DNA from: a virus | Taxonomy: Duplodnaviria > Caudoviricetes | Direction: 5' to 3' (one strand) | DNA length: 57,712 nucleotides | Virus record (IMG/VR): IMGVR_UViG_3300024309_000001 | Coordinates: 1-57,712 of that record | Shown here: in pieces, positions 43,357 through 46,429 of the stretch | How the letters are laid out: each line of letters begins with the position of its first letter | Position numbering within the stretch: the first letter of the stretch is position 1 | Notes under the pieces: generated by a model | What the model saw: the letters and a program-made list of their open reading frames with translations, nothing else | The model's database searches: none | What the model was told of the DNA's origin: nothing | Translations under genes and position numbers: made by a program

Positions 43357-43623
43357 TCACGCATGCTCAGCCTCCCGCGGGAGATTCGCAGCGGCTTTCC
43401 CATTGGTCGCCAATTCAGGCCAGATCAGGTGCCAGTCGTCCGGCCGCAGGTCGCGGCGGGTTACGGCACCATCGGTGGCGACCTCGATGGCGGCGCAACG
43501 ATCGGCAGGAATTTTCCTTCGTCCATCCCTCCAGAAGCACACCGCCTGTGGGGTGACGTGGATGGCTCGGGCCAGCGCTGATGCGCTGCCCATCTTCCGG
43601 ATGGCGGTTTGGATAGGGTTCAT
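43357..43623 (-). CDS. cro: Cro/YdaS-like repressor
   Basis: SALARAIHVTPQAVCFW..IEVATDGAVTRRDLRPD. Confidence 0.85.
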   Translation of the reverse strand: MNPIQTAIRKMGSASALARAIHVTPQAVCFWRDGRRKIPADRCAAIEVATDGAVTRRDLRPDDWHLIWPELATNGKAAANLPREAEHA

Positions 43624-43631
43624 ACGTCGCA

Positions 43632-43698
43632 ATTCTACACTTGTAGATATTTATCATCAACAACTGTATTTGATGGCACTTCTACACCTGTTTAAAGT
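43632..43698. promoter_or_regulatory. OR region: divergent promoters and three operators
   Basis: TCTACA-nn-TGTAGA at 43634, variants at 43657 and 43681; TTGATG-17-TAGAAT (-), TTGATG-17-TAAAGT (+). Confidence 0.8.
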
Positions 43699-43705
43699 GT
43701 GGGCC

Positions 43706-44182
43706 ATGGCACTAGGCAAGCAAATTAAGTTCTATCGCGAAAAGCTGAATCTCACTCTGGAGCAACTGGAGGAGATATCGGGTGTAGGCACAGGCACGAT
43801 CAACGCCCTGGAAGTGAGGGATAGCGTGCGCTCCAAGTTTGCGCCCGCTCTTGCCGCTGCCTTCAGGCTATCTGTTGAGCAACTTCTGGATGAGTCACGT
43901 GATTGGCTCTCCGAAGCGGCACACCAACAATCGACAACTGGTAGCGGCAAGAAGGTTGCCGCGCTTTCGGATCTGGCTGCTGTTGAACTATGGACACGCT
44001 ATCAGCGCGCCAACCGTGCGGCACAATTGGTGGTTGATCTCGCGCTTGGCCGCCGGGTCCAACCCCAGGATGAAGCACTAAAGCATTCAGTACAGGCAGC
44101 GATATCGGTCGCAGCCGCCTCTTTTCCAAAAGAAAAACACACGAAATCCGCCAAAAAGCGGGAAAGTTCTGCTGTTTCCTAA
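43706..44182 (+). CDS. cI: CI-like XRE repressor without S24 domain
   Basis: LGKQIKFYREKLNLTLEQLEEISGVGTGTINALE; divergent from cro. Confidence 0.8.
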   Translation: MALGKQIKFYREKLNLTLEQLEEISGVGTGTINALEVRDSVRSKFAPALAAAFRLSVEQLLDESRDWLSEAAHQQSTTGSGKKVAALSDLAAVELWTRYQRANRAAQLVVDLALGRRVQPQDEALKHSVQAAISVAAASFPKEKHTKSAKKRESSAVS

Positions 44183-44206: not shown

Positions 44207-44449
44207 ATGAAAAAATGACAACTGAATATATTTTTCAGGTACATAGTCTACGGACTCGCCAGCATCTCCATACTACTGGCTGTTGGCGGCCTGTCGTCTT
44301 GGACAACTGCCAAGCGGCCCGAGTTATTGCTGTCTTCGCTTGTTTCTATCGGTTTTTCTGTGGTGACCATAGTGAAAATCACGTGGCGGCCATTGATGGC
44401 AGGTTTCCTGCTGAATCGGACTATTCAGCTCATGGAGAGAAAATCATGA
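44207..44449 (+). pseudogene. Membrane-protein gene with broken 5' end
   Basis: MKK*QLNIFFRYIVYGLASISILLAVGG..LLLSSLVSIGFSVVTIV..; stop overlaps the next ATG. Confidence 0.55.
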
Positions 44450-44727
44450 AGCCATCCCTCATTACCTCGGCTTTGATCATTTGCGCCGCTCTGTCTGGAT
44501 GCGCATCGGTCAGTGAGGTCTCTCAGTTGGACAAAAACACATACTTCCTCACCGTAGATACCGGAAACCAACAATTCACCACCGGCGACTTGCTGAGCAA
44601 GGCTTCCGTCAAGGCAACTGAGTTTTGTGGCAAGCGGGGTCGCTCAATGTCCGCTATCGGGTCAGACCTGGATCATCGGGGCTTTGGCAATCGAGATCTG
44701 ACGCTTCGGTTTCGGTGCGTAGAGTGA
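44446..44727 (+). CDS. Lipoprotein (superinfection-exclusion candidate)
   Basis: LSGC lipobox, GGAGA RBS, two further Cys. Confidence 0.75.
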   Translation: MKPSLITSALIICAALSGCASVSEVSQLDKNTYFLTVDTGNQQFTTGDLLSKASVKATEFCGKRGRSMSAIGSDLDHRGFGNRDLTLRFRCVE

Positions 44728-45092
44728 TGGAGGGTAAATTCTTGCTCGCCGTGCCAGCCCTCGCAATTGGTGCTGTGCTTGGCTATTATGGTTCTGGCTT
44801 GTTTGATGTGGCGGACATGACGCCTTATCAGCGATGCGTGGATGACGCATCCCGCAGGCCGACCAATAACGGGGTAAGAGCGGCATTCGAGTTGTGCCGG
44901 ACTAGGTTCTCACCGCCATCAGGGCTGGAAAGCACCGCTGAGCCTGTCGCAAAGCATGGCCCGTGGAATAAATACGCGGAAAAACGCGATGACCTTTGTC
45001 TAGCACTGAAAAACGCTAAATCTACCGGTGCGACTGACGACGCTCGACGTCTTGAGGAATTCATAAACTCAAACAGCCTCGAATGTGAATAA
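44727..45092 (+). CDS. Membrane-anchored protein with ejection-protein-like motifs
   Basis: N-terminal TM, Cys pair, GPWNKY, LCLALKNAKSTGATDDARRL. Confidence 0.7.
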   Translation: MEGKFLLAVPALAIGAVLGYYGSGLFDVADMTPYQRCVDDASRRPTNNGVRAAFELCRTRFSPPSGLESTAEPVAKHGPWNKYAEKRDDLCLALKNAKSTGATDDARRLEEFINSNSLECE

Positions 45093-45240: not shown

Positions 45241-45315
45241 TCTACACTTGTTGACAGAAATAAATCTACATGTGTAGAATTCATCCCAAGCCCTCACGGG
45301 CGCGTTCTTTCACAA
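45241..45315 (+). promoter_or_regulatory. PL/OL with boxA-like site
   Basis: TTGACA-18-TAGAAT; operators at 45241 and 45265; GTTCTTTCACAA resembles boxA. Confidence 0.8.
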
Positions 45316-45396
45316 CTTGGGATTCAGAGGAGAGGCGCAGGAATGCGCGCCTTTCGGTCAGGATTACGCAGGGCAGCGTCAACTGCCCCGCGCTTC

Positions 45397-45498
45397 CTAG
45401 GTCACGGCGATCAGGATGATGGCGGCAACAGCCCGTAAGACTGCGGCCACATCAACAATCACGTCCACCTTCACAGACACTTTCCGGCTCATTTGCAT
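45397..45498 (-). CDS. 31-33 aa hydrophobic peptide (type I toxin-like)
   Basis: (MQ)MSRKVSVKVDVIVDVAAVLRAVAAIILIAVT*, followed by GC-rich hairpins. Confidence 0.5.
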   Translation of the reverse strand: MQMSRKVSVKVDVIVDVAAVLRAVAAIILIAVT

Positions 45499-45867
45499 GT
45501 CCAAGAAAGCCTGTGGCCACAGGCGTTAAGCCTGGTGTATTTGTATACCGCCCCTGCTCGGCGGTTGCGGGTCGCGTACCTAGGATGCTCCCCGCCCCCC
45601 AGTGCCAAGCCAAGGATTGCTTAGCTCGCTGGGAGCGGCTTGCGTCACCTAAGGCTTTCGTCGCAGCCGCCGTCTGTCGCGTTTCGCCGGTCACTTGGTC
45701 GGAATGCGAACAGTGCGACTGTCGTTTTGCCTTGGCGACGCGCACCTGTTAGCGGCTCGTGAGGCCGCAACCGAGGTTCACGGCCTCGGCTGGAAAAGCA
45801 TAGCACTACTCCCCCTCCCCTGAATCCCCGGTTTTGAAAGCTTTCATGGGGATGAAAGGAGGAAGTC

Positions 45868-46095
45868 ATGGGTGTCTTTGAATACTCGATCTTGTGGATC
45901 AACCTGCTGGCGATCGCGGCGACGTGCGACAGCATTTGGGTCAGTCACATCCGGCCGATTCTGGCGCGGAAATATGGCTGGCCGGATCTGGATCCCGACG
46001 AGCTGATCCCGGCACAAGCCTGGATCGGCGCGCTGGCCGTCATTGCGATCCTGTTCATCGCGGTGCCGGTCATCGGCAACGCGGCGGGGTTCTGA
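45868..46095 (+). CDS. Small two-TM membrane protein
   Basis: AAGGAGG RBS; two hydrophobic segments. Confidence 0.7.
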   Translation: MGVFEYSILWINLLAIAATCDSIWVSHIRPILARKYGWPDLDPDELIPAQAWIGALAVIAILFIAVPVIGNAAGF

Positions 46096-46096
46096 T

Positions 46097-46429
46097 ATGG
46101 CCACGATCAAAGCAACAGTGGGCGCCTGGCTGAGCAGCGATTACGCCCAACAACGGTTCGTTGAGGGCCGACAGAGCGGAGACCCCGCCCGCACGCTGGC
46201 CGCAATTGCCCTCAACCACCAAGACATGACCGACTGTGGCTGGACGCGCATTGGGGAAGCGACTGTCACGCTCGAAGTCGCGGAAGACAGCCAGATCCGT
46301 CAGAACATGGTCAGCGCCCTGCAGGAGCAGAAGAGGTCCGTACTGGCGAAAGCCCAACGCGAGGCCATGCAAATCGAAGAACGGATCCAGAACCTGCTGG
46401 CGATCAGCTTCGACGGGAGCGTGTCATGA
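46097..46429 (+). CDS. Hypothetical protein
   Basis: GWTRIGEATVT plus coiled coil ending IQNLLAI. Confidence 0.7.
   Translation: MATIKATVGAWLSSDYAQQRFVEGRQSGDPARTLAAIALNHQDMTDCGWTRIGEATVTLEVAEDSQIRQNMVSALQEQKRSVLAKAQREAMQIEERIQNLLAISFDGSVS

Follow-up and report, generated by a model that had tools for sequence, protein, structure and literature searches.

Type I toxin loci encode a small hydrophobic peptide on an over-long, folded messenger whose start codon is sequestered by alternative pairings. Here, we have analyzed a unit of comparable build in a temperate phage (Duplodnaviria; Caudoviricetes), whose DNA is available as a complete 57.7-kb viral record (IMG/VR record IMGVR_UViG_3300024309_000001; the whole stretch of 57,712 nucleotides is referred to below as the window). 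Positions 45304-45828 form a self-contained conserved cassette in the untranslated leader between the early (PL) promoter and the first early gene, and the minus strand of this cassette holds a predicted extended -10 promoter, a long folded leader and an open reading frame (ORF) of 31 codons (Table 1). On balance, comparison of the cassette copies collected in this study favors reading the unit as a gene for a membrane peptide, type I toxin-like and locked at the level of translation.

The described loci used for comparison (hok/sok, tisB, zorO, dinQ, shoB, aapA1 and hokW-sokW) share several features with the cassette: a peptide of ∼30 aa with a single hydrophobic helix, a messenger of 400-450 nt that is far longer than the ORF, a start codon sequestered by alternative pairings, a long-range contact that may reach the 3' region of the mRNA, and residence on mobile elements, as in the prophage-borne hokW-sokW. 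In agreement with them, the peptide is shorter than 60 aa and hydrophobic (31 aa, with a modelled helix over residues 15-30), and the mRNA has a computed fold that would block initiation and alternative helices that covary. Unlike them, the cassette has no dedicated promoter for an antisense small RNA (sRNA) and no overlapping mok-like frame, and its peptide belongs to none of the named families; it is oriented antisense within the early leader of a phage, where the sole antisense RNA is the early transcript, and it has a pair of kissing loops at the 5' end. The type I features used here were taken in part from the literature (PMC8309996 and PMC8167048; see also PMC8621323).

Occurrence of the cassette

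Copies of the cassette were collected by a DNA search of 401 genomes from the family of the Parapusillimonas genome and by three pattern scans, two covering viral contigs and the third covering metagenome contigs. This gave 23 distinct copies in total, which were found in prophages of one Burkholderiales family and in viral and metagenome contigs, with one copy per genome or record. Five chance matches and three duplicates were removed before counting; the false matches of the pattern scans (L049, L052, L054 and L058) were coding DNA without relation to the cassette. In the family-level search, 14 of the 401 genomes matched. Five of them contained the whole stretch (45303-45633 plus 45738-45828), with 74-84% identity across the aligned segments; among the partial matches, one genome had the right part only, three had the promoter and operators only, and one had the boxA and inverted repeats only. 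An order-level sample gave a match in a single genome out of 401, a false one (L047), which turned out to lie in coding sequence and was discarded. Searching the leader against 50,697 phage records with blastn gave no match, and none of the 17 prophage loci and the Achromobacter phage CF418P1 recovered by an exonuclease-based search had a homologous leader.

The cassette-bearing loci showed no match to the window beyond the cassette and their flanks were unrelated, and the stretch is therefore considered to be a cassette. Upstream of it, the relatives carry an S24 repressor, helix-turn-helix (HTH) proteins and phage genes. The same site was filled in L027, L028 and L064 and empty in L068. We found no published description of such a unit in a literature search at the level of titles and abstracts.

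Three loci depart from the common arrangement. L035 (positions 1500-1920) has the same boxA and the same inverted repeats around a different interior of ∼350 nt, in which no TATGCT and no small hydrophobic ORF were noticed; inserts bounded by such repeats may thus form a family in early leaders. L032 (1526-1929) keeps the same promoter and the leader through helices Px and Py, after which comes another frame, not hydrophobic and truncated by the end of the contig, and the leader may thus be a module usable with other cargo. L057 (10387-10746) is decayed: its flanks and helices P1-P2 match those of L060, and its mid-leader and the first half of its ORF (class B, see below) have been replaced.

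A conserved gene for a small hydrophobic peptide

A frame of 31-33 aa had been proposed in a first-pass annotation of the DNA, made from the letters alone. The frame is present and is intact in 21 of the 23 distinct copies, without insertions or deletions within subfamilies; its length is now set at 31 aa, since among the possible starts (45504, 45498 and 45492) it is the ATG at 45492 that is kept in relatives. The two exceptions are L057, which has a deletion, and L032, which has another frame that is cut by the contig end. Two peptide classes, referred to below as A and B, occupy the same position (30-34 aa and 27 aa), with L062 as an intermediate. The N-terminal half of the peptide is made up of alternating charged and valine residues, and the C-terminal half is a hydrophobic helix. 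In the AlphaFold2 model (23 sequences) the helix covers residues 15-30, with a mean predicted local distance difference test score of 76, and the mean hydropathy of the last 16 residues was 2.25 over 37 distinct peptides.

Among six gapless copies of 31 codons, the ratio of nonsynonymous to synonymous substitution rates (dN/dS) was 0.23-0.58 in 14 of the 15 pairs; the closest pair gave 1.37 on 7 changes. These values point to purifying selection acting on the frame. The stop codon was TAG in 21 of 22 rows. When 1.84 billion representatives were searched with a profile built from 11 peptides, 27 clusters scored at E<=1e-3; most were of 29-34 aa, with some longer, mis-called forms, and the sole source name among the 10 clusters that were looked up was 'hypothetical protein'. 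Comparison of the peptide with a protein atlas was uninformative (best score 0.82). The RNA and the peptide are covered by no Rfam, Pfam, NCBIfam, PHROGs or PADLOC model.

The minus-strand promoter and its predicted transcript

The promoter of the unit had first been described as TTCAGG and TATGCT separated by 16 nt, with an extended TG. All of these elements are present, and the position of the -10 element is conserved in all alignments. The proposed -35 (TTCAGG, 45824-45819 on the minus strand) did not stand: it lies within the right terminal inverted repeat (TIR-R), and relatives carry 4-5 extra bases between the repeat motif and the -10, so that a conserved -35 was rejected. Since the supposed -35 falls within an inverted repeat and is shifted in relatives, the promoter is read as an extended -10 promoter. 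Its variants in the 23 copies were TATGCT with TG (13 copies), TATACT without TG (5), TATGCT without TG (3) and TATTCT with TG (1), one copy being unparsed; judging from these, TG presence and hexamer quality compensate for each other. Because an extended -10 promoter needs no -35, the minus-strand promoter is presumably active in the lysogen while PL is repressed.

The 5' end of the mRNA would fall near 45790. The predicted mRNA of ∼424 nt would then consist of a folded 5' untranslated region of ∼298 nt, the 31-codon ORF and a GC-rich 3' hairpin (T1). Counted over nine copies, T1 had 74 Watson-Crick, 7 G-U and no A-C cells when read on the minus strand. Terminal hairpins had been noted at this end of the unit, and this holds for T1; the outermost one, at 45334-45351, belongs to the plus strand, with 22 A-C cells against 1 G-U cell if it is read on the minus strand.

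In public metatranscriptomes the stretch was found in five runs, three of which were examined together with one DNA run; all are contigs, from which neither strand and ends nor level can be read. In run X6, a relative is represented by a 507-nt contig that covers 45309-45830 at a depth of 17, compared with 5-6 for neighbouring contigs, and in run X7 a contig ends at 45827, with a depth of 39 against 5; contig ends may be assembly breaks at the borders of the cassette, and we placed no weight on either. X6 and X7 come from one study. In a further run (X4) the whole region lies in one 11-kb contig, which is uninformative.

A covarying leader RNA

The minus strand of 45330-45800 folds far more stably than expected (z = -5.8, a value reached by none of 100 shuffles), and so does the plus strand of 45288-45867 (z = -4.2, again 0 of 100 shuffles). 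For 32 other 470-nt windows of the phage, taken from bases up to 34970, the mean z was -0.94 (standard deviation 1.07, minimum -3.1). The possibility that hairpins and short ORF alike arose by chance in non-coding DNA of high GC content, which the local value (58-63%) and the abundance of short Ala/Val-rich ORFs in all frames might invite, has next to nothing left to recommend it and is refuted by the comparative data: the folding scores just given, covariation above all shuffles and 23 copies with a conserved frame.

Misalignment of the two peptide classes limited RNAalifold, when run on the full alignment, to a part of the structure, and helices were then defined by hand on sub-alignments. 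At the 5' end (first 55 nt, 17 sequences), hairpins P1 and P2 together with the helix formed between their loops were 95.5% paired, with 31 double-change cells, which was reached by 0 of 500 shuffles. Helices Px and Py were 90.4% paired, with 13 double-change cells (also 0 of 500 shuffles). Slid controls fell to 32-56% paired for the 5' hairpins and to 28-56% over both covariation tests. The three pairs counted in the kissing helix changed as AU 10, GC 6 and GU 1; UA 11 and CG 6; and GC 7, CG 5 and UA 5. Two further loop pairs occur in L062 and L065, and in all at least seven complementary variants of the kissing loops were observed. Hairpin Pv differs almost wholly in sequence between copies; the local fold of all 22 copies nevertheless contained a terminal hairpin, closed by a stem of at least 5 bp and formed from unrelated sequences. 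The stems listed in the first-pass annotation (P1, P2, Pv, Py and the palindrome discussed below) are thus found at the places given there, with covariation and the G-U pattern of a minus-strand RNA.

The strand of the RNA could be read from cells that pair on one strand only, as a G-U pair on one strand is an A-C mismatch on the other. In P1 and P2, 20 cells pair on the minus strand only and 1 on the plus strand only. For P1, P2 and Px together, there were 26 minus-only G-U cells against 2 plus-only cells, and the corresponding counts were 4 against 0 for the 2:3 hairpin described below and 7 against 0 for T1. This asymmetry assigns the RNA between 45790 and ∼45367 to the minus strand.

A scan with Rfam 15 gave no match at gathering score in the window and none on the cassette in 20 related loci. 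The best sub-threshold matches (gabT, STnc40 and PtaRNA1) had E values of 1.3-3.7 and were single hairpins. PtaRNA1 (RF01811) is a type I antitoxin RNA of Beta- and Gammaproteobacteria, and its weak resemblance to 45362-45428 on the minus strand (19.3 bits compared with a gathering score of 47, E 1.3) was rejected as chance; the match is the 3' hairpin on the ORF's own strand, whereas an antitoxin should be antisense. Of the checks first proposed for the unit, the Rfam search thus gave no family, and the comparison of homologs showed covarying helices and a conserved ORF. A new class of non-coding RNA had also been considered. The RNA is indeed in no Rfam family, but it is the leader of an mRNA and not a stand-alone non-coding RNA.

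Table 1. Positions of the features of the cassette and its surroundings in the window
Feature	Position	Strand	Basis or remark
Extended -10 promoter, TG-n-TATGCT	45797-45805 (hexamer 45802-45797)	minus	position conserved in all alignments
P1 hairpin	45790-45770	minus	covariation
P2 hairpin	45768-45752	minus	covariation
Kissing loop-loop helix P1/P2	45782-45778 with 45762-45758	minus	covariation
Variable spacer of the 5' untranslated region	45634-45751	minus	length and sequence unconserved in alignments
Pv hairpin	45598-45633	minus	sequence almost wholly different between copies
Px	45595-45567	minus	loop with invariant AUCCUAGGU at 45586-45578
Py	45565-45547	minus	followed by A/U-rich single strand
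Four-segment switch	45472-45535	minus	segment 1, 45535-45530; segment 2, 45524-45517; segment 3, 45516-45504; segment 4, 45485-45472 (codons 3-7)
31-aa ORF	45492-45397 (ATG 45492, TAG 45399-45397)	minus	start kept in relatives
T1, GC-rich 3' hairpin, terminator-like, poor U tract	45367-45392	minus	G-U versus A-C cells
TIR-R	45806-45828 (repeat match 45812-45828)	minus	upstream of -10, overlaps supposed -35
TIR-L	45319-45335	plus	inverted-repeat match
rrn-type boxA-like 12-mer	45304-45315	plus	left edge of conserved module
Hairpin, mostly GNRA loop, boxB-like or weak attenuator	45334-45351	plus	follows boxA
Early (PL) promoter, TTGACA-18-TAGAAT	45251-45280	plus	promoter scan 11/12
Two operator palindromes bracketing PL	45241-45254 and 45265-45278		motif search
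Two small membrane or lipoprotein genes	44446-45089	plus	between repressor and early promoter
HTH repressor gene	43703-44179	plus	neighbourhood of unit
Cro/YdaS-like gene	43360-43632	minus	neighbourhood of unit

Alternative pairings around the start codon

Four segments upstream of and within the ORF can pair in two ways. Pairing of segment 1 with 2 goes together with pairing of segment 3 with 4, which buries the AUG; pairing of segment 2 with 3 forms a palindrome (45524-45509), which is followed by a U-rich run and scored as terminator-like in the window. Segment 2 is the 5' half of the palindrome, and segment 3 comprises its 3' half together with the run. Both alternatives are conserved in the alignments: the 2:3 hairpin had 51 Watson-Crick, 4 G-U and no A-C cells, and the 1:2 helix had 44 Watson-Crick and 3 G-U cells among 55. 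In L031, coordinated changes keep both 1:2 and 2:3. The 3:4 helix was present in the local minimum free energy fold of 8 out of 11 class A copies. Class A copies have a GC-rich hairpin, a U-rich run and a competing 1:2 helix upstream of the ORF. Class B has an analogous AUG-burying hairpin of different sequence in all four copies. Taken together, computational folds of 18 of the 19 copies placed the AUG inside a conserved hairpin, where at least one of its bases had a high pairing probability; this is in keeping with the earlier suggestion that a structured leader gates the ORF. The Shine-Dalgarno sequence of the ORF is weak.

A further contact may involve the other end of the ORF. In 15 of 16 class-A-like rows, among them the duplicate L061, an 8-mer in the invariant loop of Px can be matched to the 8-mer that surrounds the stop codon, with complementarity at 7-8 of the 8 positions. 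Pairing of this CCUAGG loop with the stop-codon region would explain why TAG is fixed. Neither side of the putative contact varies.

A toxin-like reading of the unit and its alternatives

Since the mRNA seems to be built like the messengers of type I toxins, the peptide is, by analogy, most likely a membrane-active, toxin-like product that would be made only after refolding or processing. The mRNA would keep the peptide untranslated by its weak Shine-Dalgarno sequence and by holding the AUG inside the hairpin of segment 3 with codons 3-7. If segment 3 re-paired with segment 2, the palindromic hairpin and U-rich run would form, with one of two outcomes: transcription would end ahead of the ORF, or the AUG would be released. 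The CCUAGG loop could pair with the stop-codon region. Once PL fires, convergent transcription and duplex formation should alter the fate of the peptide mRNA, the direction being either silencing or activation. The boxA and the GNRA hairpin of the PL transcript presumably aid read-through of the 500 nt of hairpins.

Several observations weigh against this reading. First, an antitoxin sRNA promoter, a defining part of type I loci, is not conserved in the cassette: no sigma-70-like or extended -10 promoter was found on the plus strand inside it in 13 of 14 copies (a weak or non-sigma-70 promoter would be missed), and the single internal match, in the remaining copy, is not conserved. Second, the peptide matched no family at E<=1 in Pfam, NCBIfam (12 peptides) or PADLOC (10 peptides) and none in PHROGs at E<=0.01; the profiles compared included those of the named type I toxins (Hok, Ldr, TisB, Ibs, ShoB, Fst and others in Pfam and NCBIfam). 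Third, dN/dS values of up to 0.58 represent moderate constraint only, and part of the conservation of the ORF is explained by the RNA pairing of segment 4. The peptide gene of L057 is naturally inactivated, which means that the gene can be lost. Finally, not all elements of the RNA are general. In class B no U tract follows the 2:3 hairpin, so attenuation would not be a general property. The kissing loops are missing in L063, which has no P1, and in L061 (6100-6160; identical to L066) P1 and P2 are replaced by two other, unrelated hairpins with non-complementary loops, the remaining leader and ORF matching those of L046; the kissing domain is thus dispensable and exchangeable. The folding energy of the whole molecule favors the minus strand in just 8 of 14 copies and is strand-ambiguous.

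Because there is neither an antitoxin promoter nor a named family, we describe the unit as working like a type I messenger and do not class it as a member. The type I toxin-like module proposed in the first-pass annotation is supported in part, by the peptide layout and the locked mRNA fold. The absence of an internal antisense promoter also means that only the PL transcript can act as an antisense RNA.

The peptide might instead be a harmless small membrane protein that is made in lysogens, for superinfection exclusion or lysogenic conversion, with a leader that merely tunes its level. We consider this possible, though doubtful. Its location is suggestive, as the unit lies in an immunity and moron region beside the small membrane or lipoprotein genes at 44446-45089 and has its own promoter, as morons have; the lack of an antitoxin and the toleration of the decayed copy in L057 would also be easily understood. 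However, a harmless product would be unusual in having its translation kept low by ∼300 nt of covarying RNA, a weak Shine-Dalgarno sequence and burial of the AUG, and the size and layout of the peptide are those found in type I toxins.

A more elaborate version of the toxin-like reading can be put forward only tentatively, and it is rather unlikely to be correct as a whole. Here, a toxin module without an antitoxin gene of its own would read the state of PL. A locked, stable mRNA would accumulate in the lysogen until PL fires on induction or repressor loss; the boxA-modified antisense RNA and RNase III, which would cut the duplex of mRNA and antisense RNA or the stem formed by the inverted repeats, would then destroy the mRNA or free the AUG. 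Release of the AUG would yield the membrane-active peptide at a set lytic time or in cells losing immunity. The hypervariable, covarying kissing loops would serve as specificity tags that prevent cross-talk between related cassettes.

If the unit is indeed a translationally locked, toxin-like peptide gene, it would represent an unannotated family of membrane peptides of ∼30 aa (27 clusters) and a structured RNA family of ∼300 nt absent from Rfam. It would also be a variant of type I control in which a phage early transcript is the antisense partner and the peptide is tied to the lysis-lysogeny switch. The RNA would offer a compact model with covarying kissing loops, a start-codon switch and a loop-to-stop contact. 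Standard genome annotation overlooks the peptide gene, the folded leader and the boxA-like early leader.

Inverted repeats and plus-strand features of the early leader

The motif of the terminal inverted repeats (TIRs) has 2 matches in the window compared with 0.06 expected. Left and right repeats co-vary over 20-23 nt in 15 copies, with 304 identical cells, and their G-U cells are evenly divided between the strands (13 minus-only and 13 plus-only). TIR-R lies upstream of the minus-strand -10, and the PL transcript is therefore the only RNA in which the two repeats can pair.

Such repeats raise the question of whether the cassette is a selfish insertion, similar to a miniature inverted-repeat transposable element, that moves between phage leaders and keeps its interior as an addiction module for itself. 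The 20-23-nt repeats, the filled and empty states of the same site and the unrelated flanks are what such an element would show. However, no target-site duplication was visible between the filled sites L027 and L028 and the empty site L068, there is one copy per genome or record and no transposase, and boxA travels with the module. We regard this explanation as unlikely; it is compatible with the toxin-like reading and not opposed to it.

The boxA motif recruits Nus factors. The left edge of the cassette is a boxA-like 12-mer that shares 11 of 12 bases with a 12-mer located ∼210 nt upstream of the 16S rRNA gene in genome G001, and from the biology of E. coli and lambda we take it to function as a boxA. 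It follows the early promoter in 19 of the 23 copies and is also present in the cassette-free leaders L030, L034 and L068. Between the rrn leader of G001 (L072:1270-1320) and a phage leader (L068:1495-1530), the likeness extends a dozen bases past boxA. The early leaders of these phages thus appear to copy the antitermination leader of the host rRNA operons, and such leaders of Burkholderiales phages, mimicking the rrn boxA leader, may serve as landing sites for antisense cassettes.

The hairpin that follows boxA belongs to the PL transcript, as its 91 cells in 13 copies comprised 67 Watson-Crick, 22 plus-only and 1 minus-only cells and 1 gap. The stretch 45288-45357 gave a weak sRNA-terminator-like match to Rfam (E 2.8). 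The plus strand thus resembles a lambdoid nutL or rrn leader in having a boxA-like 12-mer, a GNRA hairpin and a TIR stem that encloses the insert; the flanks of rRNA operons likewise pair to enclose 16S. By sequence, the 11/12 boxA match and the plus-strand-specific hairpin would place it among boxA/nut leaders. It differs from them in the gap of ∼20 nt between boxA and hairpin, which contains a TIR, and in that no N-like protein was identified, and the unit itself is on the opposite strand.

In view of these features, the functional molecule might be the plus-strand early leader RNA, processed or engaged in antitermination and enclosed, as in an rRNA operon, by boxA and the TIR stem, with the minus-strand promoter and ORF as by-products. 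This would account for boxA and the GNRA hairpin, for repeats that pair only in the PL transcript, for L035, which has the same TIRs around a different interior, and for the metatranscriptome contigs of the relative that end at the TIR borders (45309 and 45827-45830), although contigs cannot show strand. The interior helices tell otherwise: over P1, P2, Px, the 2:3 hairpin and T1, 37 G-U cells would be A-C on the plus strand, compared with 2 of the opposite kind, and a conserved ORF frame, a TAG stop and a -10 element would be meaningless for a plus-strand RNA. We therefore consider it very unlikely.

Phage context and neighbouring RNAs

The recombination exonuclease of the phage shares 70% identity with its counterpart in Achromobacter phage CF418P1 and 82% with that of a Parapusillimonas prophage. 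A 14-bp operator palindrome occurs four times in the window, compared with 0.36 copies expected by chance, and is arranged as two pairs, one bracketing PL and the other at the divergent promoters of the cro-like and repressor genes (43634-43694). As the operator is shared by PL and the cro/repressor promoters, the designation of a repressor-controlled early (PL) promoter is justified, and with it the initial description of the unit as antisense within the PL leader. The four operators define an immunity specificity that is common to prophages L030, L033 and L034. It should be noted that PL and its operators are context and lie outside the conserved cassette, and they occur without it in the same three prophages. 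In the 580 nt after PL, up to the first early gene at 45868, no credible plus-strand gene was found.

The gene pair at 44446-45089 has a GC content of 43-56% and signal- or lipoprotein-like N-termini; it has a moron-like look and gave no family match. The first two early genes (45868-46426) encode a 75-aa membrane protein and a 110-aa protein. Neither had relatives in the viral contigs, species genomes or phage records, the sole exception being a weak match of the 110-aa protein to PHROG family phrog_2479.

Two described RNAs occur near the cassette in related loci. Burkholderiales-2 (RF02917, 85-93 bits) lies ∼40 nt outside the right TIR in 9 of the 20 related loci (L027, L028, L044, L046, L051, L057, L060, L061 and L064) and is also present in L068 (1501-1594), where, at the empty site, it starts 6 nt after boxA. 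It was absent from the window in the Rfam scan, and its name appears in none of the papers of the library searched. Burkholderiales-2 is thus found in phage early leaders of the kind that carry the cassette, and the strand assigned to it in Rfam is antisense to the early promoter, the same as that of the minus-strand unit; it does not overlap with the cassette. The second, DUF3800-VII RNA (RF02967), was found ∼1.8 kb upstream of the cassette in L057 (8526-8610) and ∼3.8 kb upstream in L045 (10395-10480).

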